In this document: positions 18-26,793 of the stretch, piece after piece | Position numbering within the stretch: position 1 is the first letter of the stretch | How the letters are laid out: each line of letters begins with the position of its first letter | IMG/VR virus record: IMGVR_UViG_3300029183_000037 | Location: 1 to 26,810 of that record | Strand: one strand, 5' to 3' | Source: a virus | Lineage: Duplodnaviria; Caudoviricetes | Length of the DNA stretch: 26,810 bases | Notes under the pieces: generated by a model | What the model was told of the DNA's origin: nothing | The model's database searches: none | Seen by the model: only the letters and a program-made list of their open reading frames with translations | Translations under genes and position numbers: made by a program

Positions 18-241
18 ACGCTCTGTTGTCTATATTTTTCATTTTGGCCTTGTAGCGAGTGGTTGTAGGCCAACAATATAGGAATATAGACAACATGAAG
101 CGGAGATCGGTGACGAAATTGCTAAAAATCGTCGCTAGGGTAGCGGGTAGACACATTCAATACCATAGTGTTGTTTTTACTCCTGCCAATTACGAGCCAG
201 GAAAGAAGCGAGGCGGGGTGATGGCTAGGATAGCTTGTCAG

Positions 242-285
242 AATTGAATATTTTAAGGTTCAGCATTGGCAATCTATGTTATACT
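242..285 (+). promoter_or_regulatory. Promoter: 21-bp element AATTGAATATTTTAAGGTTCA + 17 bp + extended -10 (TGT-TATACT)
   Basis: The element at 242-262 recurs exactly at 24249-24269 with identical 17-bp spacing to a TGn-TATAyT box (280-285 here). Confidence 0.7.
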
Positions 286-293
286 GGTTGCAA

Positions 294-364
294 GTGGTCG
301 GGGATTCTATATTAAAAGTTTTGTGAATCCCTCATTAATTTACAAAGATTTTAGTCCCGACCAC
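294..364 (+). other. Long hairpin in the 5' leader of the LexA-like gene
   Basis: GTGGTCGGG (294-302) pairs with CCCGACCAC (356-364); 311-328 pairs with 338-355 with G-U pairs and one mismatch. Confidence 0.55.
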
Positions 365-375
365 AAAATTTTATT

Positions 376-666
376 ATGGATGCAATAAAAACAACTGACT
401 GGCAAGAATATATGAATAGCCGCAAAGGAAAGCATAAAAACACAGCAACCACCCTACAAGGCATTCTCGACTTTATTGTCAATTATGCTATAGATAATGG
501 TTACATGCCTCACAAAAAAGAAATAGCTGAAGCACTTAATATAGACATTGCAACTTGTTATGCTCATCTGAAAGAGGCAAGGGGGCTGGGCCTTTTAGAG
601 TGGGTGGATAGGCAAGAACGCACATTCACCATGAGAGGAGTTTATTATGTTGATGATAGAATTTAG
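376..666 (+). CDS. LexA-like winged-HTH DNA-binding protein (DNA-binding domain only)
   Basis: ILDFIVNYAIDNGYMPHKKEIAEALNI...YAHLKEARGLGLLE matches the LexA N-terminal pattern (ILxFI..NGYPPS.REIAEALG..HL..L); there is no peptidase domain. Confidence 0.75.
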   Translation: MDAIKTTDWQEYMNSRKGKHKNTATTLQGILDFIVNYAIDNGYMPHKKEIAEALNIDIATCYAHLKEARGLGLLEWVDRQERTFTMRGVYYVDDRI

Positions 667-853
667 CCCCCACCTACAAGGCAACCCATTTATGACTATT
701 TTGTTTGGTTTTTTATTGTTCGCTGCTGTGCCAATGTTAATCGTTTCTATAATTTACTTCACGCAACCTAATCAGGAATTTAAGGACAGGTTTGCTGAGA
801 TAGAACGGCGAGCGCAAGAATTGAAAGACGAGGGATGGGATGGATATGACTAG
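647..853 (+). CDS. Small single-TM membrane protein
   Basis: GAGGAG RBS 6 nt upstream; hydrophobic segment FMTILFGFLLFAAVPMLIVSIIYF followed by a charged tail. Confidence 0.7.
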   Translation: MLMIEFSPHLQGNPFMTILFGFLLFAAVPMLIVSIIYFTQPNQEFKDRFAEIERRAQELKDEGWDGYD

Positions 854-1247
854 CCAAAAACTAACACCTAAAAAAGAATGGCATGATAAATTTCTAGCTC
901 AGTTGCGATTAGTGCCCAATGTTACACTGGCTTGTGATAAGGCAAAAATTAGTCGTGTTACGGCATATGAGCATCGTAAAAAATTTGATGGTTTTGCGGC
1001 AGCTTGGAGTGATGCTATTGATGAATCAATTGAGCGATTAGAATATGAGATGCATCGGCGAGCCTATGAAGGTGTGGACAAACCAGTTATTTATCAAGGT
1101 GAAATCACAGCCACCTACAAGGATTATTCTGATACGTTAGCTATTTTTTTGGCTAAGGCACATCGCCCAGAAAAATATCGTGAACGGTCGGAAATCAAAA
1201 CAGAAGGGGAGCTAATAATTGAGGTGAGGTATGGAGATGACCAATAG
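840..1247 (+). CDS. terS: Terminase small subunit
   Basis: FLAQLR..PNVTLACDKAKISRVTAYEHRK..FAAAW..A..E..RRAYEGVDKPVIYQG..YSDTLAIFLAKAHRPEKYRE is a typical HTH-type TerS pattern. The start may be ATG 846. Confidence 0.82.
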   Translation: MDMTSQKLTPKKEWHDKFLAQLRLVPNVTLACDKAKISRVTAYEHRKKFDGFAAAWSDAIDESIERLEYEMHRRAYEGVDKPVIYQGEITATYKDYSDTLAIFLAKAHRPEKYRERSEIKTEGELIIEVRYGDDQ

Positions 1248-1338
1248 AGAGATAATCTTTTTTATTGTTATGATGGCCGTGTTGATTGGCCTTGTAGGTG
1301 GTGCGATTTGGGTACAATGGCAGATAAGGAAACGGTAA
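1237..1338 (+). CDS. 33-aa single-TM protein (not in ORF track)
   Basis: MTNREIIFFIVMMAVLIGLVGGAIWVQWQIRKR; GAGGT RBS upstream; fills the gap between terS and the next gene. Confidence 0.6.
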   Translation: MTNREIIFFIVMMAVLIGLVGGAIWVQWQIRKR

Positions 1339-1892
1339 CAAAATATGAATCAGCACATGATGCGCTTCCGCGATTCAACCAAGTTGTATTAGCTCCCGTC
1401 AAGGGAGTTTTTTGGCTGGTATGGCTTACGGCGTTGGGTGCGTTGCTGGCCGCTGTTGCCTATGTCACAGACAATATAATTTGGTCGGCATTGTCTATCA
1501 TGTTTTTATTTCCCGGTGCATTGAGCCTGGTATTGTTTATTTATCAGGTTCATATCTATAATCGAAAGCTGCTAGGTAGCGGCCGCTATGAGTATCGTGA
1601 ACGGCAAGAAAACACACCAGCTACAAGGCAATTACCAACTCAACAAGATGGAAGCATCCCCTATTTCCCCAGGGGCTTTACGCAATTGGAGTTAGATAAC
1701 TTCCGGCAATATGTGAGCAGAGGCAATACAACTATTTCAGGTCGTCCGTTGGCTAATGCTGGTGTGCTGAATAGTAAGGACGATAAGAGGCTGATCGCAT
1801 TAAAAGATTGGCTGAAGGTTGAAAAAATGGGGGACAGTGGGCATAGTGGTGCAATGGAATTAAACGAGAAAGGAAGAGAGACATTTTCATGA
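1317..1892 (+). CDS. Hypothetical membrane protein (2 TM plus soluble C-terminal domain)
   Basis: Two hydrophobic helices in the N-terminal half; ATG 1317 is preferred over TTG 1308. Confidence 0.7.
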   Translation: MADKETVTKYESAHDALPRFNQVVLAPVKGVFWLVWLTALGALLAAVAYVTDNIIWSALSIMFLFPGALSLVLFIYQVHIYNRKLLGSGRYEYRERQENTPATRQLPTQQDGSIPYFPRGFTQLELDNFRQYVSRGNTTISGRPLANAGVLNSKDDKRLIALKDWLKVEKMGDSGHSGAMELNEKGRETFS

Positions 1893-2083
1893 TAATATAT
1901 TTTGGTGATTTGAATTGGAAGACAAAGCGCAAGGTGCTGGGGTTACGTCGCCGCAATCCTGATTGTACAGTTTGGATTGACCCTGATTATATGGTTCCTC
2001 AAGCATTAGCATCTACTAATGATGGGACAATTCCGCGCAGTAATGGATATAAAAAAGTGGTAGGAATTCCTGGCACAAAATAA
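1889..2083 (+). CDS. Hypothetical protein
   Basis: ATGA overlap with the upstream stop codon. Confidence 0.55.
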   Translation: MIIYFGDLNWKTKRKVLGLRRRNPDCTVWIDPDYMVPQALASTNDGTIPRSNGYKKVVGIPGTK

Positions 2084-2108
2084 CCCCTACCCTAACGGAG
2101 CAAATGCC

Positions 2109-2318
2109 ATGACTGAGCAACTACCACCAGGACAGACAGACGGACAGACAGATAAAATCGGCAATATCATGGATTGGTTTCGTGGTTTGTTCTTTAGACC
2201 AACGACGCAATACTATGAAGCACACTTCACGCAAAAACCTTCATTTGGTGAAGGTGCAGAGGATGAAATCTATACCGATTTCACAACTGGCTTTGAAGTG
2301 TTTTTTGATGATGATTAA
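2109..2318 (+). CDS. Hypothetical acidic protein
   Basis: GGAG RBS upstream; tiles the operon. Confidence 0.55.
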   Translation: MTEQLPPGQTDGQTDKIGNIMDWFRGLFFRPTTQYYEAHFTQKPSFGEGAEDEIYTDFTTGFEVFFDDD

Positions 2319-2331
2319 AAAGGAGATTAAT

Positions 2332-2523
2332 ATGGATATTAAAGCAAGTTGGAAAGATAACTTTACCGACCGTGAAAAAAAACTTATCAATAATTGCACT
2401 GTTTATAAACAAAGCGATCCAGCGGGTTTACCTGGTCATAATCTTGCGCTTATTGTTGCAAAAATGACTGAGATGCTTGATTCTGTTGAAGCTTATTTTG
2501 ATCATATGAATGCTGTTGATTGA
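2332..2523 (+). CDS. Hypothetical protein (63 aa, MDIKASWKDN...)
   Basis: AAGGAG RBS before ATG 2332; this is the 3' part of track ORF 2182..2523. Confidence 0.7.
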   Translation: MDIKASWKDNFTDREKKLINNCTVYKQSDPAGLPGHNLALIVAKMTEMLDSVEAYFDHMNAVD

Positions 2524-2548
2524 CTGTGCCTTGTAGCTGTGTTATCAT
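2520..2548 (+). promoter_or_regulatory. Sigma70-type promoter TTGACT-17-TATCAT with extended TGn
   Basis: TTGACT 2520-2525, TG 2540-2541, TATCAT 2543-2548; the spacer contains a CCTTGTAG copy. Confidence 0.6.
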
Positions 2549-2584
2549 TCGCATGACGATTTGATTGGTACTCCTCCAAGCTCC

Positions 2585-2623
2585 GCCCCTCTTGACTTTT
2601 CCTAGCAAGAGGGGTATTTTTTT
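2585..2623 (+). terminator. Rho-independent terminator directly upstream of terL
   Basis: CCCCTCTTG (2586-2594) pairs with CAAGAGGGG (2606-2614), followed by TA and T7. Confidence 0.7.
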
Positions 2624-2627
2624 GTCT

Positions 2628-3908
2628 ATGCGATCAAGTATATCTTTACCACTGCCTACATTGGCGCAAGCTTCTCCTATAAATTCCAAAGCAAAAAGAA
2701 AAGTATTAAATTGTGGACGAAGGTCGGGCAAGACTGAATATTTCGCTAGTTTTGAATCTGTCCCCCGCTTCTTAGGTTTTAGAATTGAATGTAATATTGT
2801 TGATGGAGAGGTGTCAGTTTCGCATATACCAATACAAAGAAAATCCAGAATATTATACGGCGCTCCGACTGATGATCAGACGATGGTCTATTGGGAAAAA
2901 ATAACAAAGCACCTTCATCCACTTATTAAGGGCGGTTTTGTTTATCGCAATAAGACGAAGAGATATGTAGAATGGTTGTCAGGGGGAGAGGGGAGAATAA
3001 AAGCAAAAACGGCTTGGGATGCTGATTCATGGCGTGGCGATCATGGCGATTTACTTTTATATGATGAATGGGCTTATATGGATGAAGAAGCTTTCTCTAG
3101 CGTTGGTATCCCTATGTTGCTTGATAATAATGGGAGTGCTATTTTTGGGAGTACGCCTAATAGAAAGAATCATCATTTTGCATATTTTAATCGTGGGATA
3201 GATGAGTTTGATAAGCGTTGGGAGTCGTTCAAATTCACCTCTCATGATAATCCTCATTTGAGCAAAGAGGCGTTAAGCGAATTAACCCAAGATTTGACCG
3301 ATGACAATTACCGCCAGGAAATCATGGCTGAATTTCTTGAAAATGAGGGGGCGGTATTTAGGAATATTGAGGCATGTATGAATGCACAACCTACAAGGCC
3401 AAATGAACATAAAGGACATCATCTTGTAGCTGGTGTGGACTGGGGGAAACATAAGGATTTTACTGTTATATCTGTAGGTTGCAGGACTTGCGGATATGAA
3501 GTTCATTTAGACAGGTTTAACAAAATTGATTATAGTTATCAGCGCGGCCGCTTGGCAAATATTATCAATGAATGGGGAATTGTTGATTCATTGGTGGAGT
3601 TGAATAGTATAGGTGAACCTAATTTCGAGGAACTGGAACGGGGTGATTTACCAGTTAGAGGATTTCAGACAACGGCCGGAAGCAAGCGTCCATTGATAGA
3701 GGGATTAGGTTTGGCACTTGAACGAGAGACATGGCAATTTTTAGATGTGCCAATCGCAACGGCAGAGTTAGAAGCGTATGAAATTAAAGTGCATCCAGTG
3801 ACAGGACACGCGACCTATTCCGCTCCGGCTGGTGTGCATGATGACACAGTTATGGCGAGGGCGTTAATGGTTCAGGCAGTAAATAGTTACATGCCTGCAT
3901 TTTTATAG
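2628..3908 (+). CDS. terL: Terminase large subunit
   Basis: Walker A CGRRSGKT, Walker B LLLYDE, coupling motif GSTP, nuclease motifs VAGVDWG and HDDTVMARAL. ATG 2628 is the likely start. Confidence 0.95.
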   Translation: MRSSISLPLPTLAQASPINSKAKRKVLNCGRRSGKTEYFASFESVPRFLGFRIECNIVDGEVSVSHIPIQRKSRILYGAPTDDQTMVYWEKITKHLHPLIKGGFVYRNKTKRYVEWLSGGEGRIKAKTAWDADSWRGDHGDLLLYDEWAYMDEEAFSSVGIPMLLDNNGSAIFGSTPNRKNHHFAYFNRGIDEFDKRWESFKFTSHDNPHLSKEALSELTQDLTDDNYRQEIMAEFLENEGAVFRNIEACMNAQPTRPNEHKGHHLVAGVDWGKHKDFTVISVGCRTCGYEVHLDRFNKIDYSYQRGRLANIINEWGIVDSLVELNSIGEPNFEELERGDLPVRGFQTTAGSKRPLIEGLGLALERETWQFLDVPIATAELEAYEIKVHPVTGHATYSAPAGVHDDTVMARALMVQAVNSYMPAFL

Positions 3909-3913
3909 GAGAT

Positions 3914-5134
3914 ATGATGGAACAAAAAATTTGGAAATGGTTCAGTTTGATATTGATAGTTGTTGGGGTGTTAGGGGTGATTATATCATCGGCTAGTAGC
4001 CAATCGATATATCCCGAATATATTATGAATATTGGCGATGGTGTCGATATTGGTTGTAATGGTGGGGAAGTTTTTTTGAGTGGCCAGACTCAGGCGGGTT
4101 TGCATATCGACTGTGATCCGCTGGCCACACCTTCACCACTGCCAACATCCACAGCAACCAGCGCCCCGCCCACGTTAACACCCGTTCCGACCAACACGTC
4201 AGTACCGCAGATGATTGTCAATGAATGCGCGGCCTTTGGTTGGTCAAAACTTGAGGCGCAAGGGTGGTGGCAACCTGACGCGGGCCACGTTCACTTGACG
4301 GCTTGCGTTCCTCTGTTTCAATCTGTTAGCGGGTCGTTCACGATTCCGGTTCGAGTAGTTCTTCACGACAACCCTGGGACGGTCAACTTCATGCGCCTTA
4401 GCAGTTCGGAGCTAGGGACAATCTACCAAGACAATACAGTTTCGTTCTCGTGCCCAGTGGGGACATGCTCGTTTTATTATGAATATTTGGCCGATGCTGG
4501 TGACTTCCAAGCGGGATGGGATGGAATTAGAATGTCGCTAAACATTCCTTCAGAGGGCAATATAGATCGCTGGTTTGCAAGTACAGATTACCCCATATGG
4601 GTAGGGAGTGGGCCACCCCCCCACCCGTGTTCTATTCCCGGTAGTCAGCTTGATCTATTTCAGGGTAAGGGATGGTATGAGTATAGCGATAGCGGGCAAA
4701 ATGAATACGCTACGGCGCGGCTTCATCCGTGCGACATGCCCCCTAACGACACAATAGAAGGGGCGCACCAATTCAGCACACGGGCCGGATCGAACGGCCT
4801 AAACGCTCGGCTTTTTGCTGCGGTCAATCGCTCTCATGGCGTTCCGGCCGCGCCGCCCTTTTGGCTTGAGGAGCCAGCTTTATCACCGGGGCCAATTATC
4901 CTCGACATTACGACAGGCTTGACTAGCTATTCAGGATTTACGATTGATGGTGGTACAGCTTCTATCGCGCCGGGTTGGAATACGGTCGCCGTTCACATCG
5001 ACCACGCGGGTTGTAATTGGCCCGGATGCACCCAAACCGAGCAGGATAGCAGTTTGACGGGCGTGCTGAAATACTGGTTTGATTACCAACCAGGCCCGAC
5101 AGCGATCAGCGTTACGGGGTTCTCCTCTGACTAA
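3914..5134 (+). CDS. Secreted Cys-containing protein with Pro/Thr-rich linker, function unknown
   Basis: N-terminal signal peptide, PLATPSPLPTSTATSAPPTLTPVPTNT linker, C-terminal PTAISVTGFS; visibly GC-richer than its flanks. Confidence 0.75.
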   Translation: MMEQKIWKWFSLILIVVGVLGVIISSASSQSIYPEYIMNIGDGVDIGCNGGEVFLSGQTQAGLHIDCDPLATPSPLPTSTATSAPPTLTPVPTNTSVPQMIVNECAAFGWSKLEAQGWWQPDAGHVHLTACVPLFQSVSGSFTIPVRVVLHDNPGTVNFMRLSSSELGTIYQDNTVSFSCPVGTCSFYYEYLADAGDFQAGWDGIRMSLNIPSEGNIDRWFASTDYPIWVGSGPPPHPCSIPGSQLDLFQGKGWYEYSDSGQNEYATARLHPCDMPPNDTIEGAHQFSTRAGSNGLNARLFAAVNRSHGVPAAPPFWLEEPALSPGPIILDITTGLTSYSGFTIDGGTASIAPGWNTVAVHIDHAGCNWPGCTQTEQDSSLTGVLKYWFDYQPGPTAISVTGFSSD

Positions 5135-6540
5135 TGACAGATATAAACTTGGAAGTCGAGGAAAAAGACGCGGATCGGCATGAAAACGCCGATACGTCTA
5201 TGTCGTCAGCGTCAGCAGCCAATACGCTGCTCGACGCTGACGGTGAACATGCCGGGATGCTCTTTCCTAGCGCGACGATACCAGTTGGGGCGACTATAAC
5301 CGTTGCTGATCTCCAAGTTTACGCTAACCAGACCAGTAACAAGACCGCCATAATGGATGTTCATTGCGAACTAGACTCAACGGGACTATTTGGGGGGAGT
5401 GATGGAGATATTAGCGATAGAACCATCACCACTGCCAAAACGGCTGTAAACGAAACTTACGCCAGCATCAACGAGTACAAAACAATAAGCATTGTTAGTG
5501 CCGTTCAGGAGGTTGTAGACGATGCGGCTTGGGCCAGCGGCAATGATATTGTCGTCATTATCAATGCGCTATCTGGCTGCGCCCTGCGGTTGCAGTCATG
5601 GGATAACACAGGCACAGAACATCCGCTTTTAGATATTACATTTATTCCGAACCAATCTGCGGGTGGTACTCTGACGCTGGCTGGAACTGTAGTCAAAACA
5701 GGAATAAAACCACTTGCCGGAACGTTGACAACAGTAGGAGCGATTGCTAGATTAACAGGCAAACCTATTGTGGGCACATTAACGACTGCCGGCAGTCCTG
5801 CGAAACAAACGAATAAATCATTTGCCGGAACGCTAACCAGTGCGGGGAATCTTGTAGTTGTTACGCTGAAATCTCTTGCCGGTACATTGACTAGCGCGGG
5901 AAGTTTGACGCGGTCGACCAGCACACCCCTACAAGGCACACTAACCTCATCAGGTTCACTATCAAAATTAACTAATAAAATACTAGCCGGAGCGCTTTCT
6001 TTTGCAGGTACTTTGGCGACTTCTCTTGTCTATGTGATTTCATTGGCTGGTACACTGACGACTAGTGGGGCATTATCACGCCAAACTAATAAAATAGTTG
6101 CAGGGGTATTGTCATTTAGTGGGGCATTAGCCAAGCTAACATCAAAAGCAATATCAGGAGCATTGTCAATAGCTGGCAACTTGGCGAGACAAACAAACAA
6201 AATAGTAACTGGTGCATTGACAACGGCAGGGGCAATAGTCCGGCAAATTGACAAAACGGTGGCAGGTGCATTATCATCAAGCGGGGCGATAGTGCGAAAG
6301 ATATCCAAAACCCTACAAGGCAATCTATCATTATCTGGTATTTTGTCCGCTGTACGTAGCACTATATCGTCGTATGTGATGGAATTGCATGAGCGCACTA
6401 ATATCTTCTTGTTAGAGGTCAAGTCAAATATTTATCAATTGCATGAGCGCACAAACTCGCTTATGTTACGTGTTAGGTCAAATATTTATAATCTGTTCGA
6501 GCGTACAAACTCGTTAGATATTGAAGATAAGGATAATTAA
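5134..6540 (+). CDS. Putative virion fibre: N-terminal beta-sandwich domain plus 13 x 18-aa repeats
   Basis: The N-terminus (AGMLFPSATIPVGATITVADLQV...HPLLDITF) resembles DNRLRE/CBM96-like domains. KxLAGTLTSxGxLxRxTN repeats span 5653-6360, with three (H/F)ERTN repeats at the C-terminus. Confidence 0.6.
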   Translation: MTDINLEVEEKDADRHENADTSMSSASAANTLLDADGEHAGMLFPSATIPVGATITVADLQVYANQTSNKTAIMDVHCELDSTGLFGGSDGDISDRTITTAKTAVNETYASINEYKTISIVSAVQEVVDDAAWASGNDIVVIINALSGCALRLQSWDNTGTEHPLLDITFIPNQSAGGTLTLAGTVVKTGIKPLAGTLTTVGAIARLTGKPIVGTLTTAGSPAKQTNKSFAGTLTSAGNLVVVTLKSLAGTLTSAGSLTRSTSTPLQGTLTSSGSLSKLTNKILAGALSFAGTLATSLVYVISLAGTLTTSGALSRQTNKIVAGVLSFSGALAKLTSKAISGALSIAGNLARQTNKIVTGALTTAGAIVRQIDKTVAGALSSSGAIVRKISKTLQGNLSLSGILSAVRSTISSYVMELHERTNIFLLEVKSNIYQLHERTNSLMLRVRSNIYNLFERTNSLDIEDKDN

Positions 6541-6541
6541 T

Positions 6542-7153
6542 ATGGAAGGCAAAATTTTTATAGGTGGTAATTTATATCCTCAAAAAATATCAGGATGTGT
6601 AAAAGCTCCTCTATTCTGGCATGTTAAAAATAGATTGCGGTGGGGTTATTTGTTTGGGCGATTTACTAATTGGTTAGCTAAGAAGTTTTCAAAATTTACT
6701 GGAGTGCCTACACTTACGGCTGAGTTAAGCGCAATCCATATTAAAATTAATGGCCAGAAAATAGATTATGGCATTGTAGGGTATCGGGTGGTGACAACGG
6801 CATTTGTCAATTTTATGGTAGATCAGCTCCAAACTGAAACCAGTCAATGGGGTGATTTCAAATATCATGATTCCGGCGTTGGTACGACTGCCGAAAATGC
6901 CAGCGATACGGACATTGAAACAACTGACGGCGAATCCCGCGCAACTGGTACACAAACTGAAGGGGGAGATAATATTTATGAATCGGTTGGCACAATTGCT
7001 TATACCTCAACGAAAGCTATTACCGAACATGGTCTATTTAGTCAATCAACGGGAACGACACTAATGGATAGAACTGTTTTTAGTGCTATTAATGTTGTTA
7101 ATGGTGACTCAATCCAATTCACCTATGATCTAACGGTGTCAAGCGGTGGCTAG
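6542..7153 (+). CDS. Fibre-associated/tail-collar-like structural protein
   Basis: GVGTTAE...AITEHGLF...GTTLMDRTVFSAINVVNGDSIQFTY is a pattern typical of phage fibre-anchoring proteins; AAGGA RBS before ATG 6542. Confidence 0.65.
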   Translation: MEGKIFIGGNLYPQKISGCVKAPLFWHVKNRLRWGYLFGRFTNWLAKKFSKFTGVPTLTAELSAIHIKINGQKIDYGIVGYRVVTTAFVNFMVDQLQTETSQWGDFKYHDSGVGTTAENASDTDIETTDGESRATGTQTEGGDNIYESVGTIAYTSTKAITEHGLFSQSTGTTLMDRTVFSAINVVNGDSIQFTYDLTVSSGG

Positions 7154-7478
7154 TAATAGAGAAGTAAAAGGCTCACCAGTTGATAGAGGGATTGGCGAAG
7201 AATATCCCTATCAATTCACATTGACTGATAGAATTCCATCAGGCACGAATGCCAATGCGTCAGAAACACTATATGAAATCAATCCTGATAATGATGTTGA
7301 GACGGACGTAACTGCTACGGCAATGACTGGCAGTCCTTCCGTTAGTTCGTCAGCCTATACAACTGCTGACTTTGTAGCGGCTCAATTGCAAGATGGTTAT
7401 CGTTATCGTCTCAATTGGGGATTCGACATTGATGGTGATAGATGGGATTGGAATCTATATATAAATGCGAGTGCATAA
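7146..7478 (+). CDS. Putative fibre-tail adaptor-like protein
   Basis: 110-aa acidic beta-rich protein with a GTG start overlapping the upstream gene; size and context fit small fibre adaptors. Confidence 0.5.
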   Translation: MASNREVKGSPVDRGIGEEYPYQFTLTDRIPSGTNANASETLYEINPDNDVETDVTATAMTGSPSVSSSAYTTADFVAAQLQDGYRYRLNWGFDIDGDRWDWNLYINASA

Positions 7479-16574: not shown

Positions 16575-16730
16575 ATGGCACTTAAATATATTAAGGGAAG
16601 CGGCCACCTTGTAGGGGTTCCTTCTCGTGATTTATCAGATGATGAAATTAAAAAATATGGTGGTATAAAATATCTTGTAGATAGTGGTAAATACAAGAAA
16701 ATAGCCACTGAGAAAAAGGAGAGTAAATAA
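16575..16730 (+). CDS. 51-aa hypothetical protein (not in ORF track)
   Basis: MALKYIKGSGHLVGVPSRDLSDDEIKKYGG...; fills the gap exactly, and its stop overlaps the tail-tube ATG. Confidence 0.65.
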   Translation: MALKYIKGSGHLVGVPSRDLSDDEIKKYGGIKYLVDSGKYKKIATEKKESK

Positions 16731-17931: not shown

Positions 17932-18289
17932 GTTAGCAACAAACAACACAGCACCTACAAGGCAATTTGTAGACAATCGTGTACGAATTGAGGTAGACCC
18001 TGAACGAGTCGAGGCATGGGAATTGATGGCTGTTGAATCTTCAAAACTAACTGATATTATGTTAGTTCTTTGTCGTTATTTGGCAAATGGTCATGGCCTT
18101 GTAGGGTGTGATTGGCCTACTGATGATGAGAATAGAGATATTCCCCTGAATTCATTATCTCGTGCTGAGTTGTCACAAATTCAGCACTCCAAAGCATTTG
18201 GTTTGATTCAGCGATTTAAGCCAAATGACATAAAGAATGCGGCTCAAGAATTTGCGCAGGGGGCATTGGCGGACATTGACCCAAACTAA
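17921..18289 (+). CDS. Tail assembly chaperone (gpG-like)
   Basis: Lies between tube and TMP and ends in slippery C-CCA-AAC-TAA. The start is 17921 or 17909. Confidence 0.7.
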   Translation: MEHKLATNNTAPTRQFVDNRVRIEVDPERVEAWELMAVESSKLTDIMLVLCRYLANGHGLVGCDWPTDDENRDIPLNSLSRAELSQIQHSKAFGLIQRFKPNDIKNAAQEFAQGALADIDPN

Positions 18290-18528
18290 AAGGGCGACTA
18301 AATGAATTATTCCGATATGGTTCAGTTGAGGGTCATATACCGTATTGGGTGAATGTTCTGATAGTCGCTGATAATTGGAAAACTCCCCCCTGGCAAATTG
18401 CATCAGAATTAAATTATACGATTCGCTATTGGGTGCAGTTGGAACGGCAATTAAGGAATATTAGAATTGCTGCTGATAACCATCGAGCAGAACGGAAAAA
18501 GTGGGAAGCAAAACAAGAGCATAGATAA
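18280..18528 (+). CDS. -1 frameshift extension of the tail chaperone (gpGT-like)
   Basis: Heptamer CCCAAAC at 18280-18286. The -1 frame stays open for 82 codons (...VADNWKTPPWQIA...) with no ATG and stops at TAA 18526-18528, overlapping the TMP ATG. Confidence 0.8.
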   Translation, partial: PKLKGRLNELFRYGSVEGHIPYWVNVLIVADNWKTPPWQIASELNYTIRYWVQLERQLRNIRIAADNHRAERKKWEAKQEHR

Positions 18529-20678
18529 TGGCAGACACAACACTAACAGTCATATTTAAGGGTCGCGACCAGTCCGCAAGCAGTACGGCATCTTCTGTCA
18601 GCCGTGCTTTTTCTAATTTAGGTGGTGTAGTTAAAGCGGGTGCTTTGGCCGGTGTGGCTGGATTGGCTACTCTTGGAGTTGGCATTGTTGGCTTGGGCAG
18701 TAAATTGGTCGGTTTAGGCAGTGATGCACAAGAAATGATCGGCAAATTTAATGTTGTATTTGCTAATACAGGTGAGCAAGTCACAGAGCAATTAGATGCT
18801 TTTGCTGAAAGTGTCGGCCGCTCCCGATTTGAATTAATGGGGATGGCATCTACATTTGGCGATACGCTCAAGCCAATGGGATTCACAGAAGAAGCAGCCG
18901 CTGATATGTCAGTTGAATTAACTCAATTAGCAACTGATTTGTCCTCATTTAATAATATGTCGATGGACGAAGCACTCCAACGACTACAAGGCACACTAAT
19001 TGGGTCACACGAGAATGCACTCGCATTTGGAGTTATCATAAATGAAAATACCCTTGCGGCAGAATTGGCGCGTAATGGTTGGGACAATTTAACAGGTTCA
19101 GCATTAGAACAAGCAAAAGTTCAAGCAAGAATCAATCTATTAATTGCTGGCACGACCGACGCGCAAGGCGATGCGGCCAGGACGAGCGGTTCATGGGCGA
19201 ATCAAATGAGAGCATTAAAAGGTCGATTGACTGATGTTGGAACTGAAATAGGATTAAAACTATTACCAGTTGTTACACCATTCCTAAATAAAATTGGACA
19301 ATTGGCTGGCGAGTTAGGTAATAAAGTTATTGGATTTTTTGAGAAAATACAAGTTCCGCTTTCATTTTTTTCTGATGCTCTTGAAGATTTATTAGCTGGT
19401 GATTTTGTTGGATTTTTTACCAATTTACAAGTCGCTGTGTTTGGGCTATTTCAGGAATTTGGAGCAAGCCAATCAACCCTACAAGGCATTCGTGATTTTT
19501 TTGGCGGCATTTTGTTAGATTTGCAAAACGGGGCTACACCAATTGAAGCATTCAAAAATGCTATATTAGGACTAATACCTCAAGAAGTAATTGATAAGGC
19601 GATTGCGATTAAAGATGCTATTATTGATTTTGTTACACCTATTGTTAATTTTGTTGATGAACATTCAGAAACGATAAAAAATACTTTTATTGCCATTGGC
19701 GCAGCTTTGGCAACTGCGGCAATAGCAGGAAAAATTGCTGCTATTGCTACAGCTATTGGCACTCTTGTAACAGGTTTTCAAGCGGCTGTAGCGGCCAGTG
19801 GATTATTTTCGGCAGGGCTAGCGGCAATAGGCGGGCCGATAACTTTAATTATCGGAGCTGTTGCCTTGCTTGCAATTGCATGGAATGAGAATTGGGGGGA
19901 CATACAAGGAAAAACAGCAGAAGTTTTATTATGGTTTAATGCAGAAGTTCTTCCAACTTGGAAAGGTAATGCCGATAATATGCGGGCGATTTGGGATATT
20001 GCTAGCACTCGCATATCTGAATTATGGAAAAACTTACAATTGACGATTGATGTTTTTGTGCAATGGTGGGATGTAAATGTTGTTCAAGTGTGGGAAGGTA
20101 ATGTGGATAATATGTCGGTTGCTTGGGGGATTGCAAAAGAAAATATCGCTGAGTTATGGAATGGATTACAACTGACAATTGAATCATTTATTAATTGGTG
20201 GGGGACAAATGTTGTCACTGTTTGGGCGGGGAATGTAAGCAACATGGCATCAGCTTGGGAAACCGCAAAAGGAAATTTGACAGGTGCATGGAATAGTTTT
20301 AAGGAAACGGTTGAAGCGGCATGGGGAGCAATACAACCTATATTTGAAGCAATCGAAGCTTTTGCCGCTTGGGTTAATAGCACAACCCTATCATTAGATA
20401 TTCAGATTCCAGAATTGCCGGACTGGGCAACACCTGACTCGCCTCTTCCTATTCATACAGCATGGAAAAATTTCGGTGAGTATCTTGGCGGTCAAAATTT
20501 TGTACCAAAAGTTGATATGAGCCAGGCGCAGCCGTTGTTAGCTCCAGTCTCAGGAGCAAGCACCAGCAATTCAACAGTTATTAATGATAGCCGACAAACT
20601 GTTTTTAATGTCAACACTCCTCAATTTAATGCTGGACAGGAAAATAGAATTCAGATTGCTATAAAAGGCGGTATTTAA
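18528..20678 (+). CDS. Tape measure protein
   Basis: 716 aa, Ala/Gly-rich helical; GRDQSAS N-terminus, LATDLSSFNN, Trp-periodic repeats, hydrophobic central segment. Confidence 0.92.
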   Translation: MADTTLTVIFKGRDQSASSTASSVSRAFSNLGGVVKAGALAGVAGLATLGVGIVGLGSKLVGLGSDAQEMIGKFNVVFANTGEQVTEQLDAFAESVGRSRFELMGMASTFGDTLKPMGFTEEAAADMSVELTQLATDLSSFNNMSMDEALQRLQGTLIGSHENALAFGVIINENTLAAELARNGWDNLTGSALEQAKVQARINLLIAGTTDAQGDAARTSGSWANQMRALKGRLTDVGTEIGLKLLPVVTPFLNKIGQLAGELGNKVIGFFEKIQVPLSFFSDALEDLLAGDFVGFFTNLQVAVFGLFQEFGASQSTLQGIRDFFGGILLDLQNGATPIEAFKNAILGLIPQEVIDKAIAIKDAIIDFVTPIVNFVDEHSETIKNTFIAIGAALATAAIAGKIAAIATAIGTLVTGFQAAVAASGLFSAGLAAIGGPITLIIGAVALLAIAWNENWGDIQGKTAEVLLWFNAEVLPTWKGNADNMRAIWDIASTRISELWKNLQLTIDVFVQWWDVNVVQVWEGNVDNMSVAWGIAKENIAELWNGLQLTIESFINWWGTNVVTVWAGNVSNMASAWETAKGNLTGAWNSFKETVEAAWGAIQPIFEAIEAFAAWVNSTTLSLDIQIPELPDWATPDSPLPIHTAWKNFGEYLGGQNFVPKVDMSQAQPLLAPVSGASTSNSTVINDSRQTVFNVNTPQFNAGQENRIQIAIKGGI

Positions 20679-20680
20679 TA

Positions 20681-22606
20681 ATGGCGGGACTATGGGAAAT
20701 AGATGTAGATGGAGTATCAAAAGATTTTGACGATGATTTGTATTTTACAGTCAGTCGTCATTTTGGGACAGGTATGCCGCCGATGCGTGTTATCACCTCA
20801 CCCCTACCCCTACAAGATGGCGATTTGTTTGAGAAAATAAAATTCTTAGGCCGCCCATTCAAGCTACAAGGCAATTTCAACACGACTACCGACGCGACAT
20901 TGGCAAATTATCATAGTCGCAGACGTGCATTATTAAAAGCTTTTAATGCAAGAGCTGGAACAAAGATAAATCAGAAACCAACGCCGCTTACTATCCGTTA
21001 TACAGGTAGTGCGGCTGATGTAGAAATTGAAGCATTTTACACTGGAGGTAAATTAGAAGATGGGCAGAATGGAAGCTTCGGCCAAGAAGATGTTAATATT
21101 GATTTTTATGCCACTAATCCCTTTTTTTTCACCACGTCTGAGTCAAATCCGAGCTTAGACGTAAATGATACGGACACTTTTAATTATGTGGGGGGGAGAG
21201 AAGATGGTCTATGGTCAGATTTAGGCGCACCTGCTTTCACCGATCCTAGTCTGGGGATTGTTATTAATGCTATTGCTGTTAGGCCGTCTAATGGTGATAT
21301 ATATTTTGGTGGCGAATTTCTGAATGCTGATGGTGATGCCAATGGCGATTATATTGTTTATTATGATATATCAGAAAGTGCATGGGTATCTCCTGCCGCA
21401 ATGGTTCTAAATGGCATTGTTAGAGGATTAGTTTTTGATGCTAATGATGATTTAATCGCTGTAGGTGATTTTACTAATGCTGGCGGTGTGACCGCTGCTG
21501 ATTATATTGCCAAATGGAATCATACAGCATGGGCGGCAATTGGCGATCCTAATTCTGGTGGAGCATCTATTACTCAAGTTAATTGTGTTGCTGTCGGGCA
21601 AAATGGGATTATTTATGTTGGTGGCTCTTTTTCTGATATGGAAGGGGATGCTGGCGCAGATGATATAGCTCAATTTGATGGTACAAATTGGGTTGATATG
21701 GACTCTGGCGTAACTGGTTCGGGAACTGTAAGAGACTTGGCATATTCGCAATCATTGAATAAAGTCTATGCTGTAGGTAATTTTACTAATATGGGGGGTG
21801 TTGCTGCGGCTGATAATATTGCTGTTTGGGATGTTAATGATGGTTCATGGACAGCAATAGGAAGCAACTATCCTGGCGGGGGGTCAAGTATTGCCATTGC
21901 TTCAAATGGTGATTTGTATGTGGGTGGCACAACGACCGATAAAATTTCTTATTTTAATGGTGTGCAATGGTCAGCAGTTGGAACAATTTCAGGTGGAACG
22001 ATTTTAGATATTGCTTTTGATTCACGGGGAGATTTATGGGCAGTTTCATCTGGGTCTACATTTGATAATTTAGATACAATTGGAATTGCTCGCTGGAATG
22101 GTTCAGGATGGTATTATGCTGATATTTATCTATCTAATGCTGGCGCAACGGTCATTGTTGTTGATGATAGTGATAATGTTTGGTTAGGACTAGATAATGA
22201 ATCTGTATCTTATGCTGGTTCGACAACTGTATCTTATGCTGGTTCAGCAAGAACATATCCACGTATAGAAATATCTCGTTCTGGTGGCACATCTGCACAA
22301 TTGGTGCAAATAGAAAATTACACCACAGGGGCAAGATTGACATTTAATTATACTTTTCTTGATGGTGAAACACTTACTATTCAATTTAATCCACGTGCCA
22401 CTAATGGTATTAGTGTGGTTAGTTCTCATTTTGGAAAAGTGCCCAACGCCATTTTGCCAGGTAGTGATTTTGGGCAATTCTTTTTAACTGGCGATCAAGC
22501 AAGTGGCAATAATGACAATGTAATAACCGCTTTTGTTTATCAAGTTGGTTCACCAACAATGACAGCCACACTTTATTATAAAGCGGCTTATCTCAGCATT
22601 GACTAA
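20681..22606 (+). CDS. Distal tail protein (Dit-like) with inserted beta-propeller domain
   Basis: Follows the TMP. Dit-like N-part (...FYATNPFF) and C-part (TYPRIEI...IENYTTG...LDGETLTI) flank repeated IYxGGxF...IAxWD/N...W blades. Confidence 0.72.
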   Translation: MAGLWEIDVDGVSKDFDDDLYFTVSRHFGTGMPPMRVITSPLPLQDGDLFEKIKFLGRPFKLQGNFNTTTDATLANYHSRRRALLKAFNARAGTKINQKPTPLTIRYTGSAADVEIEAFYTGGKLEDGQNGSFGQEDVNIDFYATNPFFFTTSESNPSLDVNDTDTFNYVGGREDGLWSDLGAPAFTDPSLGIVINAIAVRPSNGDIYFGGEFLNADGDANGDYIVYYDISESAWVSPAAMVLNGIVRGLVFDANDDLIAVGDFTNAGGVTAADYIAKWNHTAWAAIGDPNSGGASITQVNCVAVGQNGIIYVGGSFSDMEGDAGADDIAQFDGTNWVDMDSGVTGSGTVRDLAYSQSLNKVYAVGNFTNMGGVAAADNIAVWDVNDGSWTAIGSNYPGGGSSIAIASNGDLYVGGTTTDKISYFNGVQWSAVGTISGGTILDIAFDSRGDLWAVSSGSTFDNLDTIGIARWNGSGWYYADIYLSNAGATVIVVDDSDNVWLGLDNESVSYAGSTTVSYAGSARTYPRIEISRSGGTSAQLVQIENYTTGARLTFNYTFLDGETLTIQFNPRATNGISVVSSHFGKVPNAILPGSDFGQFFLTGDQASGNNDNVITAFVYQVGSPTMTATLYYKAAYLSID

Positions 22607-23730
22607 TGGCTAATTACGAATTTTGGTATTGTGATGAGTCGGGAAATCGGCTTGAGTATATAAGCCTTGTAGGGGGGGTGGAATTCGTCCACGTACAAGG
22701 CGATGTCGGTGCGGCTATATTTGATTTCCCAATTCTGAATTTAATCCATGAGGAAATCAGACCAGAGCGACGCATACATATCTACCGTCAACCAATTGGC
22801 GGCGCGTTAACTTTGGAGTTTGTTTGTTTCCTGAACATCTGGACATTCTACAATCAATTTGATGGACGCGAAGCCCTAACCCTACAAGGCGACGATCAAA
22901 ACAATCTTCTCACTCGTCGTGTAGTTGCCTACCATACTGAATCTGCTGAAGCTAAAAAATCAGAAGCGGCTGACGATATGATGTACAATATCGTCGATGA
23001 AAACATGGGCAGTAGCGCGGGTGATTACGCTGGCTCGAACACTAACCGTGATATGACAGGTAATAATTTTAGTATTAAAACATCGCCAGGGAACGGGCCA
23101 ACTGTCAATCAGTCGATAGCATGGCGACCAGTCCTCGAGACATTACAAGATATTCAAGCCATAACTAAATCACAATCAAATGAAGTATTTTTTGGATGCC
23201 GTCCTATTTCTGATACTAAAATAGAATTTGAGGTAAAAACAGGACAATGGGGCAATGACCGAACACAATCAACAGGCACAGACCCTATTATTTTTAGCAT
23301 GGAAAACGGTAATCTTGTGCAACCATCCCTCACACACGATTATTCTAATGTTGAAAATTATGTATATGGCAAGGGTGAAGGCAGGCAATCTGATACTGAA
23401 ATATCAGAAAAAAGTAATGCGTCACGAATAGGATTATCAGCATGGGGAAGAAAAGAAAAACTATCAAATGCTACACTCAGCTATGATGTTGCTGATGAAA
23501 CGGCGGACGATGACCTGGCTAGAGGCAGACCAAAAATAACCCTACAAGGCGATCTCCTATCTACACCCCAGGCCCCATACGGCGGATTGATTGGATGGAA
23601 ATTAGGCGACAGGGTAACTATCAATTATGCAAATCGCCAATTTGATAGCGTCATTCGTTCAGTTCGCATTAAACTAGATGCCGATGGTCGAGAAACTATC
23701 ACTAGCCGTATTGAGGATTTAGCAGCATGA
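22606..23730 (+). CDS. Tail tip/hub protein (siphovirus Gp37-like)
   Basis: IIFSMENGNL...NYVYGKGEG...WGRKE...WKLGDRVTI pattern; follows Dit. Confidence 0.72.
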   Translation: MANYEFWYCDESGNRLEYISLVGGVEFVHVQGDVGAAIFDFPILNLIHEEIRPERRIHIYRQPIGGALTLEFVCFLNIWTFYNQFDGREALTLQGDDQNNLLTRRVVAYHTESAEAKKSEAADDMMYNIVDENMGSSAGDYAGSNTNRDMTGNNFSIKTSPGNGPTVNQSIAWRPVLETLQDIQAITKSQSNEVFFGCRPISDTKIEFEVKTGQWGNDRTQSTGTDPIIFSMENGNLVQPSLTHDYSNVENYVYGKGEGRQSDTEISEKSNASRIGLSAWGRKEKLSNATLSYDVADETADDDLARGRPKITLQGDLLSTPQAPYGGLIGWKLGDRVTINYANRQFDSVIRSVRIKLDADGRETITSRIEDLAA

Positions 23731-24212
23731 GAGATGATACAAGAAAGCAATTAAATAAATTATTGACACGTGATTATGTGAATCATTTGGGGGCACGTGT
23801 TTATCGTTCATCTGCTCAATCAATTACCAGTGGGTCTAATAATACAGTTACATTCAATAGCGAGAGATATGATAGAGGCGGCTTTCATTCGCTTATATCT
23901 AATACTGGACGATTAACTGTTCCAACTGGAGCAAACGGATTATATTTAATCGGCGCATCAATTGCATGGGCATCTAATGTAAACGGGAATCGTCAATTAG
24001 CAATTGGCCTAAATGGTACATCTACGTTGATCTGTGCCCTGCGGTTTTCAGCTACAGCGCTTGATACTCGTGCCCAAACTGTTAATTGTGTTTACGATTT
24101 AGTAGCAGGCGATTATGTTATATGTCTGGTTTACCAGAACACAGGCGGCAATTTAAATGTCAATTCATCCAATAATTACTCGCCTGAATTTTGGATTCAA
24201 AAAGTCGGTTAA
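23727..24212 (+). CDS. C1q/TNF-like domain tail protein, candidate receptor-binding protein
   Basis: ARVYRSSAQSI...VTFNSERYD...GRLTVP...GLYLI...LVAGDYVICLVYQ. Confidence 0.7.
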   Translation: MRDDTRKQLNKLLTRDYVNHLGARVYRSSAQSITSGSNNTVTFNSERYDRGGFHSLISNTGRLTVPTGANGLYLIGASIAWASNVNGNRQLAIGLNGTSTLICALRFSATALDTRAQTVNCVYDLVAGDYVICLVYQNTGGNLNVNSSNNYSPEFWIQKVG

Positions 24213-24248
24213 AGAGCCATCTCCTTTATATCCCCTAAGATAAAATCA

Positions 24249-24292
24249 AATTGAATATTTTAAGGTTCACGCCTTGTAAGGTGTGTTATATT
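24249..24292 (+). promoter_or_regulatory. Second copy of the 21-bp element + 17 bp + extended -10 (TGT-TATATT)
   Basis: AATTGAATATTTTAAGGTTCA 24249-24269 and TATATT 24287-24292; heads the post-tail gene block. Confidence 0.7.
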
Positions 24293-24299
24293 CGTATAT

Positions 24300-24313
24300 A
24301 CTATACGTATAGT
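24300..24313. promoter_or_regulatory. 14-bp perfect palindrome ACTATACGTATAGT, operator candidate
   Basis: Lies at the predicted transcription start and overlaps a second dyad CGTATA-TAC-TATACG (24293-24307). Confidence 0.5.
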
Positions 24314-24341
24314 TTAATGTTGGCTATGAGGAGAATCTATT

Positions 24342-24539
24342 ATGAAAACAGATGAAGAATTGCAACAAGAATCATATTATGTAGCACAGGCTATGACCAT
24401 CTACGGGGGGGCGTTTGCTGAGAATCTTGGGAAAGCTTTGCAATGTGCTGATAGAAATAACATGCGAAAAATATATGAAACATGGACAGACATGTGGGAA
24501 CAATATTTTAATATGAGCAAGCACATACAAGGAGTATGA
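24342..24539 (+). CDS. Hypothetical phage protein (65 aa)
   Basis: GAGGAG RBS; YGGAFAENLGKALQCAD..N...W motif. Confidence 0.75.
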   Translation: MKTDEELQQESYYVAQAMTIYGGAFAENLGKALQCADRNNMRKIYETWTDMWEQYFNMSKHIQGV

Positions 24540-25318
24540 TCATGGAATTAGTAGACGTTATGAAAGAGAAGTTTGGCGAATTTGATAAATTGTCATTGAG
24601 AATTGTAATAAAGTCCATGAATCCGTGTTCAAAGGGGATTGAGTGGTTCGACAAGTACGCGGGGAATGATTGGTTTAGTGATGCAGGTATTGAATTTTTG
24701 TCATGGTTTGCAGCACCTTACTTAAAAGGTGCTAATTTGAGAGGTGCTAATTTATATGATGCTGATTTGAGAGGTGCTGATTTGAGAGGTGCTAATTTAT
24801 ATGATGCTGATTTGAGTGGTGCTGATTTGAGAGGTGCTGATTTGAGAGGTGCTGATTTGAGAGGTGCTGATTTATATGGTGCTGATTTGAGAGGTGCTAA
24901 TTTATATGATGCTGATTTGAGTGGTGCTGATTTGAGAGGTGCTGATTTGAGAGGTGCTAATTTATATGATGCTAATTTATATGGTGCTAATTTGAGTGGT
25001 GCTAATTTGAGTGGTACTAATTTATATAGTGCTAATTTGAGTGGTGCTAATTTGGATGATGCTGATTTGAGTGGTGCTGATTTGAGAGGTGCTAATTTGA
25101 GTGGTGCTGATTTATATGATGCTAATTTATATGGTGCTAATTTGAGTGGTGCTAATTTGAGTGGTGCTAATTTATATAATGCTAATTTATATGGTGTTGA
25201 TTTGAGTGGTGCTAATTTGAGTGGTGCTGATTTGGATAAAGCTTATTTAAATAATATTCAATATGATAGACATACGATTTTCCCTTGCGGATTAGAATTA
25301 GGAGAAAAACATGAATAA
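24536..25318 (+). CDS. Pentapeptide repeat protein
   Basis: 34 x (G/D)A(N/D)L(R/S/Y) units after an N-terminal PCSKGIEWF domain. Confidence 0.92.
   Translation: MIMELVDVMKEKFGEFDKLSLRIVIKSMNPCSKGIEWFDKYAGNDWFSDAGIEFLSWFAAPYLKGANLRGANLYDADLRGADLRGANLYDADLSGADLRGADLRGADLRGADLYGADLRGANLYDADLSGADLRGADLRGANLYDANLYGANLSGANLSGTNLYSANLSGANLDDADLSGADLRGANLSGADLYDANLYGANLSGANLSGANLYNANLYGVDLSGANLSGADLDKAYLNNIQYDRHTIFPCGLELGEKHE
24728..25237 (+). repeat. 15-bp tandem array (34 units) encoding the pentapeptide repeats
   Basis: Units such as GGTGCTGATTTGAGA, GGTGCTAATTTATAT and GATGCTGATTTGAGT. Confidence 0.95.
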
Positions 25319-25469
25319 AGTGAAATTAAATATTACGATTCCACCATTGCTAAAAGCGCAATTGCAAACGGAATCAAAAGAGAAACAGATTTCTATTTCA
25401 GAAATCATTCGTACCCGTCTTTATCAATCATATGAACAAGAAAAGGAGAATCGAACCAATGACAAATAA
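25311..25469 (+). CDS. Ribbon-helix-helix (CopG/Arc-like) DNA-binding protein, 52 aa (not in ORF track)
   Basis: AGGAG RBS; MNKVKLNITIPPLLKAQLQTESKEKQISISEIIRTRL fits the RHH pattern. Confidence 0.72.
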   Translation: MNKVKLNITIPPLLKAQLQTESKEKQISISEIIRTRLYQSYEQEKENRTNDK

Positions 25470-26286
25470 TGATGTATTTTCACCAAAAGTAACCGACGAG
25501 CAAATTGCTGTACCTGATGTATTTTATGGCGAGGTGGTCGTGTTGCGTGGCTATCATGGTATCCGGCTTTATGATTTAGATGAATCTAAAAAGGGATGGC
25601 AGGAATATGATAGCAATGACGAACTGCACAAGCGTGCTATTGCTACCCCTCAGAAAAACGGCAAGCAACGCCGGACGCATATTATTTATGAATTTCAGCA
25701 TTTCCCCATTGGCGCAAAATTCCCAACATATCCTATCCAATCTCCCAACTGGTCAGATGATTTTATCATTTTTGCGAAAAGTTTATGTGATATGCATGGA
25801 CTCGATTCGGCAGTTACCGACCGGTTGCCCAAAGCTGAATGGACTGACCAGCGCATAGAAGACTACAAGGTTTTTATGAATGAATTAAAAAAACTAACTG
25901 ACGGCAATAATTTTTTCAAATATGAAACGCCAGTTATTCGCACTTACAAAAAAGCAGATGGGAAAACCGCTAACGTTCGCGGGATTAAACTACTCGAAAA
26001 ATATGATACACAAGAAACATGCCAAACAGCCTACGAAGCGCAACATAGCAAAATCAAGAATGATGTGCCGGGTTTTGAGCCGGAAACAGTTAATGTCATG
26101 GACAAAACAACAGCACTAGCATTTGTGAAACCATTAGCCGAACAATGTCGGCAAGCTGATAACAAAATCGACCGTGATATGTTAGCGGCAAAAATGGCAG
26201 AATTGCCACCACTCAAAAACCTGTCAATTGATACGCCTGAAGTGGCCGCTATTATTGATGAATTAGAGAAGGACGCACCCTGGTAA
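25459..26286 (+). CDS. Hypothetical protein, possibly DNA replication/recombination related
   Basis: AAGGAG RBS before ATG 25459; acidic C-terminus ending DAPW as in SSB-like tails; adjacent to the nuclease gene. Confidence 0.6.
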   Translation: MTNNDVFSPKVTDEQIAVPDVFYGEVVVLRGYHGIRLYDLDESKKGWQEYDSNDELHKRAIATPQKNGKQRRTHIIYEFQHFPIGAKFPTYPIQSPNWSDDFIIFAKSLCDMHGLDSAVTDRLPKAEWTDQRIEDYKVFMNELKKLTDGNNFFKYETPVIRTYKKADGKTANVRGIKLLEKYDTQETCQTAYEAQHSKIKNDVPGFEPETVNVMDKTTALAFVKPLAEQCRQADNKIDRDMLAAKMAELPPLKNLSIDTPEVAAIIDELEKDAPW

Positions 26287-26793
26287 TGAATGGCAGCATC
26301 ATCTACATAGATAATCGAGAACCTGAACATATCCAGAAAATGAAATGGGATGGTGCATTAGTCACCATCTCACATCTGGAATTTGGTGACGTGAAAATTG
26401 TTACACCGAAAGGCGAAACAATTCTAATTGAGCGTAAATCTCCTCGTGATTTTTTGGATAGTTTGAAAGATAGGCGATTGTTTAATCAAGTAGCTGGCCT
26501 TGTAGGGGTTGCGCCCTATGCCTATGTTGTTATCAATGGATTATTTTCCACTAATGACGGCAATGTTCTTTATACGAGACACGGAGCTTGGCAGGAATGC
26601 AGTTGGACGTGGGCATCCCTACAAGGTAGTTTGCTGTCAATTCAAGAATTAGGTTGTCATATTGTTTATGACCCTGACTTTCATGGCGCAGTAAAACGGC
26701 TGGCAACTCGTTCACGCAATCCGGTCAAAATTGCACCAATGCGAGAAGCGCATGTGTTCAGTCCAGAGGAAACGATATTAACCGCCTTTCCTG
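26286..26793 (+). CDS. ERCC4/XPF-family nuclease, 3' truncated
   Basis: IYIDNREP...LEFGDV...ILIERKS..DFLDSLKDRRLFNQ contains the GD-x-ERK motif. The start of an HhH (LTAFPG) is cut by the primer. Confidence 0.88.

Follow-up and report, generated by a model that had tools for sequence, protein, structure and literature searches.

An abundant asymmetric word in a tailed-phage genome fragment and its relatives, with a phage primase as its candidate reader

The window and its iterated word

The stretch of DNA analysed here (the window), the 26,810 bases of IMG/VR record IMGVR_UViG_3300029183_000037, is a tailed-phage fragment of 41.6% GC in which the head genes, the tail genes and an incomplete early module share one strand. 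It contains 35 exact copies of an asymmetric eight-letter word, CTACAAGG, 24 on the plus strand and 11 on the minus strand, spanning positions 48 to 26626 (Table 1), while a third-order Markov model predicts 0.79. These figures reproduce those of a preliminary description made from the sequence alone, which had put the expectation at about 0.7-0.8 copies and proposed that a host or phage protein recognizes the word genome-wide. Most of the copies lie in the head and tail genes.

Table 1. Positions of the word and of the main features of the window
Feature	Coordinates	Strand	Remarks
CTACAAGG plus copies (n=24)	454..26626	+	starts 454, 674, 1115, 1621, 3391, 5929, 6313, 8846, 8942, 9252, 10228, 11061, 11698, 13481, 15712, 16152, 17955, 18984, 19479, 20864, 22882, 23542, 25863, 26619
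CTACAAGG minus copies (n=11)	48..26505	-	at 48, 1290, 2529, 8510, 9531, 10743, 13454, 16607, 18097, 22665, 26498
Inverted pair	13446..13494		13454 minus and 13481 plus, back-to-back; inverted repeat with 15-bp arms
LexA-type winged-helix gene, small	376..666	+	candidate binder of the preliminary description; nothing links the gene to the word
Head and tail genes	840..24212	+	TerS, TerL, portal, capsid, adaptor, presumed tail tube, tape measure, Dit-like
GC-rich stretch (51%) without copies	3904..5900	+	
First gene of the replication/recombination module	25459..26286	+	SSB-like by position and one weak Atlas lead
ERCC4-family nuclease gene	26286..26793	+	interrupted by the contig end

Flanking bases and codon choice

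Conservation extends beyond the eight letters, as the preliminary description had also reported. The next base (position +8) is C at 28 of the 35 copies and a pyrimidine at 34, the preceding base is C at 23, and C and A predominate at positions -5 to -2 on either strand, in the window and in a related phage record, G779, that also carries the word (see below). The -1 base is a pyrimidine at 25 of 35 sites in the window, where it is mostly C, and at 25 of 31 in G779. The window also holds 24 one-mismatch variants of CTACAAGG, including all five named earlier (near 14580, 15987, 20810, 22693 and 24272).

Thirty of the 35 copies are inside genes, and those at 48, 1290, 2529, 13454 and 13481 fall outside our gene set. 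The intragenic copies are read as LQG (15), YK (5), TR (3) and LV (7); the earlier counts for the first three frames stand, and its totals of 31 intragenic and eight LV copies are each reduced by one. Codon shuffling that preserves the protein sequences, the check that the preliminary description had proposed, leaves the enrichment in place: when codons were drawn from the genome pool the 1000 runs gave a mean of 2.05 and a maximum of 7 copies, and when they were shuffled within each gene a mean of 3.5 and a maximum of 12 (again 1000 runs), against the 30 real ones. Fifteen of the 16 LQG tripeptides in the window are encoded by the word. As 2.25 LQG would be expected, its influence reaches the amino acids and not the codons alone. 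Where the word could be written into a gene by silent choice alone it is present at 30 of 49 opportunities in the window (two of its 39 genes being left out of this count) and at 25 of 48 in G779, as opposed to 0 of 17 for a reversed control word. The sites in the terminase and capsid genes are located in alignment columns that vary among homologues. The earlier suggestion that the strand bias arises because the frame containing TAG is unusable is only part of the explanation: the window has 32 plus and 17 minus coding opportunities, but G779 divides its copies 17:14.

All other over-represented k-mers inspected in the window come from a pentapeptide-repeat gene (24536-25318). A library or assembly artefact, which the preliminary description had named as a possible refutation, is ruled out, since the copies are contained in open reading frames and two further records have the word as well. 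Promoter and terminator counts in the window match those of shuffled sequences, and no RNA holding the word is listed. The over-representation of CTACAAGG is thus a real, selected, genome-wide DNA signal, as had been proposed, with the codon shuffles and its recurrence in relatives as support.

Related phages and dialects of the word

Two related records carry the word, in a form that differs in its ninth letter: the window has the C dialect CTACAAGGC and the relatives the T dialect CTACAAGGT. The closest capsid relative (L270, 55% identity) has four copies in 4.1 kb, every one followed by T, and is the sole enriched locus among the 242 found by capsid or terminase similarity. G779, found through its tail-tube homologue, is syntenic and 27.8 kb long. 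It has 31 copies (17 on the plus and 14 on the minus strand), of which 29 are followed by T and whose 5' flank is C/A-rich as in the window. Five further tail-tube relatives, at 37-40% identity, have no copies. In both the window and G779 the density of CTACAAGG is one per 0.8-0.9 kb, but of the 19 window sites that could be mapped onto G779 only five are matched by one at the orthologous place: the density persists while most positions change. Among the exceptions, the minus/plus pair in the ERCC4 gene (26498, 26619) occupies the same places in both phages. The back-to-back pair at 13454 and 13481 lies in the gap 3' of a 153-amino-acid gene that follows the capsid gene, and a minus/plus pair occurs at this same gene gap in three phages (the window, G779 and L270); the hairpin in the window is not among the listed terminators.

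Scans of viral records with the inverted pair (42 loci) and with a 17-letter consensus (19 loci) gave no saturated contig, and the word is not enriched in prophage regions of G135 and G783 or in a 2.3-kb fragment in G800. Two further candidates were rejected. The word noted in L192 is a tandem repeat inside a tape-measure gene. In G782 (L093), a complete 56-kb phage record, CTACAAGG occurs 18 times in 56 kb without the flank consensus, and a different word is at the top; this phage, which was not compared with the window at the protein level, has 26 copies of CTATAAGG, is enriched in CTACAG as well, and shows no flank consensus. We note also a 62%-identical tail-tube homologue (P0263) on a 665-kb contig, which is probably a prophage in its host. 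Among the genomes searched, the CTACAAGG signal is private to one phage lineage, and no description of it or of a comparable phage signal was found in a literature search that most subscription papers lay outside.

Spacing on each strand

When the strands are pooled the copies in the window look randomly spaced (coefficient of variation, CV, 0.91; P 0.40). The picture differs when each strand is taken by itself. Mean gaps in the window are 1138 bp on the plus and 2645 bp on the minus strand (1.1-2.6 kb per strand over the window and G779 together), no two minus copies in the window are adjacent or nearer than 1021 bp, and the plus strand of G779 is markedly even (CV 0.36, P 5e-5). Permuting the strand labels over fixed positions gave, for the mean per-strand CV, P 0.020 in the window, 0.019 in G779 and 0.0014 combined, and for the scarcity of same-strand gaps shorter than 1 kb a combined P of 5e-5. 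Opposite-strand copies do occur as close as 27 and 35 bp, and opposite-strand neighbours at most 350 bp apart are back-to-back in 12 cases and face-to-face in four. One copy therefore spares a second on the same strand for about 1 kb, but not on the opposite strand. Even spacing within each strand suggests a directional reader, for instance a primase; an orientation-blind repressor or nucleoid protein needs no per-strand spacing, and so the spacing favours the former.

The word and bacterial genomes

Two parts of the G779 lysin have their best matches, among 401 genomes of the class Anaerolineae, in G292 and G334, which belong to one family of 160 genomes. A palindrome, ACGGCCGT, is present in G334 in 3225 copies in 3.5 Mb, compared with 179 of a control (this was one of ten genomes tested), and is there a host-wide HIP1-like (highly iterated palindrome) mark; it is also abundant in a stretch (C37) of the family member G783, and G779 has 11 copies. 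Related tail-tube genes are found in three genomes of the family, in one case within a prophage on a 4-Mb contig. From the lysin matches, the sharing of ACGGCCGT and the related tail-tube genes, this family is the likely host group of G779. The window has no copy of ACGGCCGT, and so its host is assigned to the family by extension only. The palindrome, for which a single literature search found no description, also occurs 11 times in 8.8 kb of the phage record L184.

The word is not enriched in these bacteria. CTACAAGGY, with 34 copies in the 26.8 kb of the window, occurs at most 87 times per genome in the 160 family genomes (about 17 per Mb in the densest), at or below its reversed control in most of them, and the 401 class genomes have at most 72 copies each and no enrichment (G350, G393 and G917 are included in these tallies, and no conclusion hangs on these three by themselves). 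When 185,579 species genomes were scanned for the inverted 10-mer pair, in the C dialect only, 65 loci came up, none with more than five copies; by our arithmetic a 3-Mb genome at the phage density would yield about 12 inverted pairs. With no enrichment in the bacterial genomes searched, the host-side options of the preliminary description (uptake signal, HIP or Chi) are unlikely.

Three of the inverted-pair matches proved to be one hairpin element of Desulfacinum and were set aside; in D. hydrothermale (G005; L038, L058, L066) this repeated hairpin has the word in both arms, and the 10-mer occurs 34 times in 3.7 Mb. The idea that hosts avoid the word was dropped, as the Anaerolineae genomes with low counts show palindrome avoidance and low AGG/AAG (five genomes, 15-72 kb each). 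In Anaerolineae genomes G180, G321, G114, G240 and G365 GGCC is strongly depleted, and GATC is depleted in four of the five, which suggests heavy restriction-modification pressure.

A predicted primase as the proposed reader of the word

The window is incomplete. Positions 1-17 and 26794-26810 are one 17-base tag in inverted orientation, which is also found at many loose ends of the source runs and which we take to be a random-amplification primer unrelated to the word; the window ends are thus not genome termini. Two contigs of the source runs X1 and X2 (12,714 and 4,288 bases) overlap the ends and extend the window by about 9.4 kb to the left and about 2.7 kb to the right, giving about 39 kb, comparable to near-complete relatives of 39-45 kb (P0138/P0258, P0142/P0285, P0144/P0291 and P0003/P0156/P0264).

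What the missing part may encode is indicated by a further relative, G936. Its ERCC4, DnaJ and VWA genes are common with the window or G779 in the same order at 36-42% identity, and its RecT-like and weakly matching SSB-like genes are also ordered as in those two. The gene after VWA in G936 encodes an 803-amino-acid primase-helicase with a weak RepB_primase match, the NrS-1 helix-bundle domain (HBD) PF22763 (E 2.7e-22) and D5_N/D5 domains. Its top PDB sequence matches, presumably the NrS-1 entries, are primases of NrS-1 length that align in the helix-bundle domain. The window breaks off within the ERCC4 gene and G779 within the VWA gene, in both cases before the expected primase position. A phage DnaJ-domain gene that adjoins VWA, and in G936 directly precedes the primase-helicase, was also seen at L394:674-1552 (minus strand) and L186:3019-3612. 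A primase search in the likely host family found one short contig, without the word.

In PMC8718748 the NrS-1 primase is described as reading an 8-nt site through its helix-bundle domain and starting at the first base upstream, and PMC12205980 has GP55 of phage 1706 reading CCAAC, priming on CTAAC too and preferring GTP. We consider it somewhat probable that a predicted phage primase starts DNA strands at CTACAAGG(C/T), the word and its C/A-rich 5' flank serving as the template site. The absent ~12 kb would encode, as in G936, an archaeo-eukaryotic primase (AEP) that has a helix-bundle domain and is joined to a D5-type helicase. This enzyme would bind the word on single-stranded template and begin its primer within the 5' flank, in most cases across from a pyrimidine; copying of the C/A-rich flank would give a G/T-rich primer with a purine start at about three-quarters of the sites, given the -1 pyrimidine frequencies above. 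A reader of eight or nine letters would meet too few chance sites, so that selection would retain one every 1-3 kb per strand; a second site nearby on the same strand would gain nothing and would not be selected, and back-to-back pairs would prime both strands past each other.

Several observations weigh against a primase. No primase gene is seen on any word-bearing contig (the window and G779 break off earlier), and the gene is predicted from a single relative, G936, whose capsid has no match to that of the window. G936 itself has no long iterated word, its best being CTGCTC (32 copies, 12 expected) with uneven spacing, and none of 12 phages with a related primase (G936 and 11 cultured phages picked from 436 records with a related primase plus NrS-1) has an abundant word that is even on both strands; most related primases may read shorter sites than this one. 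In single-strand folding the word sites have a pairing of 0.57, the same as random sequence (0.57), and so no extra accessibility. Good near-variants do not significantly fill the same-strand gaps (P 0.16 and 0.71), the spacing test is supported by two long contigs only (the window and G779), and in G779 the pooled strands are themselves mildly even (P 0.026). In phage NrS-1, two genomic copies of the 8-mer are proposed as an origin (PMC7102993); one exact copy was found in the NrS-1 record, and the NrS-1 primase uses a shorter GTG(A/G) site more strongly in vitro. It is the unseen gene, the wordless primase phages and the null gap-filling and folding tests that hold our confidence in the primase reading to a moderate level.

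Other possible readers

Sites for a phage protein that binds double-stranded DNA (a stoperator-like silencer, a nucleoid protein or a packaging helper), for example the LexA-like product of the gene at 376-666, are in our opinion an unlikely explanation. Such a protein would account for the phage-private word, for its dialects and for the minus/plus pair kept at one gene gap in three phages, and small DNA-binding genes are present in the window; no evidence, however, ties the LexA-like, ribbon-helix-helix (RHH) or TerS proteins offered earlier as binders to the word, and no LexA-like homologue was found in the related loci searched, which are fragments. Intragenic placement of 30 of 35 copies in both orientations of a genome with one gene direction is unlike stoperators, as the preliminary description had argued, and orientation-blind binding predicts a pooled evenness that the window lacks.

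A Chi-like mark of self, which a phage nuclease or helicase would recognize in one orientation to protect DNA or trigger recombination, would be directional and hence also predicts per-strand spacing. The lineage encodes an ERCC4 protein, a PD-(D/E)XK exonuclease and a RecT-like protein, and the surroundings of Chi are G/T-rich, as is the strand opposite the flank of the word. The likely host family is not enriched, however, the phage density is about six times that of known Chi, and we know of no phage nuclease that reads its own Chi; this explanation seems a little less likely than a double-strand binder.

It is improbable that the word is an uptake or HIP-like signal of a host absent from the genome collection. 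Its DNA uptake sequence (DUS)-like traits (both orientations, reshaped peptides, dialects and an intergenic inverted pair) would fit, the window's own host is assigned by extension only, and the GC-rich module of the window is without the word. Nevertheless, no enriched genome turned up in the class, in the family or around the 65 loci of the C-dialect scan. G779 carries the ACGGCCGT that saturates G334, so host marks are visible in the phage, and yet G334 is not enriched for CTACAAGGY; uptake would, moreover, be expected to be strand-indifferent.

That the word marks programmed nicks or one-strand methylation in virion DNA is very improbable: asymmetric intragenic nick motifs are known in T5 and phiKMV-like phages, but on one strand, whereas the word occurs on both, pairs separated by 27 and 35 bp would leave the genome almost cut through, and no nickase or methylase gene is annotated in the (incomplete) window.

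Implications

If a primase is the reader, a further proposal can be made tentatively, and we hold it with less confidence: that a primase of nine-letter plus flank specificity has written a private priming grid into both strands, at a cost in codons and amino acids. Primase sites are usually short enough to occur by chance and so leave a faint genomic trace. With a nine-letter site needed every 1-3 kb per strand, lagging-strand priming would shape phage coding sequence, the replisome would copy self DNA only, and the dialects would keep sister phages apart when they share a cell. Such a grid, from which primase specificity could be read, would add a general and so far undescribed level to the organisation of phage genomes. 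Whatever the reader, these phages, whose hosts are likely Anaerolineae (bacteria for which little phage biology exists), carry a dense self-signal that the bacterial genomes searched do not show.

Other genes of the window

In source run X1, extra read depth and loose ends at 3904 and 5974 border the GC-rich module, which suggests that it is shared with a second genome and was recently acquired. The 608-amino-acid capsid gene product (11134-12960) has about 300 additional residues ahead of its HK97 capsid domain; these are probably a prohead protease fused to it, an arrangement seen in some homologues with PF04586. The pentapeptide-repeat gene contains 15-bp DNA repeats and has very high, uneven depth in the source runs. 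Homologues of the product of the gene at 25459-26286 are 38% identical in G779 and 26% identical over 99 amino acids in G936.

Comparison with known systems

The uptake sequences of Neisseriaceae (DUS) and Pasteurellaceae (uptake signal sequences, USS) occur about once per kb, are non-palindromic, lie in both orientations, are intragenic, come in dialects and form intergenic inverted pairs. The word resembles them in density, asymmetry, orientations, intragenic placement, dialects and inverted pairs, and differs in having strand-specific spacing and no enriched bacterial genome among those searched: uptake sequences have hundreds to thousands of copies per host chromosome, and the maxima here are the 72 and 87 given above. 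HIP1 is palindromic and host-wide; CTACAAGG is neither, and it is ACGGCCGT that is host-wide in G334. Chi is likewise a directional octamer that may be over-represented in phages. Its density is about 0.2 per kb both in the host, where it is over-represented, and in the phage (PMC3784561), and its reader is the host enzyme RecBCD. The word is denser than Chi and not over-represented in the likely host family. The absence of enrichment in the bacterial genomes searched separates the word from uptake, Chi and HIP signals.

The stoperators of Cluster A mycobacteriophages (L5, TipsytheTRex) are also phage-private asymmetric words with more than 20 copies per genome. PMC9283540 describes them as 13-mers that follow the direction of transcription and sit in promoters and short intergenic spaces. 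The word is an 8-9-mer, mostly intragenic and in both orientations (24:11 in the window, 17:14 in G779, with the genes on one strand), and it is orientation and placement that set it apart from stoperators.

The word works most like a primase recognition site, and is a candidate member of the class read by AEP-HBD primases (NrS-1, TTTGGTTA and GTG; pRN1 ORF904; 1706 GP55, CCAAC). The likeness lies in the asymmetric word of eight to nine letters, in the variable 5' flank that would be the primer template, and in a relative with the same early gene order that encodes an HBD primase-helicase; primase sites should be directional and available on either template strand at distances of a fragment length, and this is what is found. 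It differs from the NrS-1 site in sequence, in its strand-wise spacing and rewriting of codons, and in its density, as opposed to the two copies given for NrS-1 in PMC7102993. The word is a real, selected, lineage-private signal, and is related to the known primase sites if the primase reading holds.

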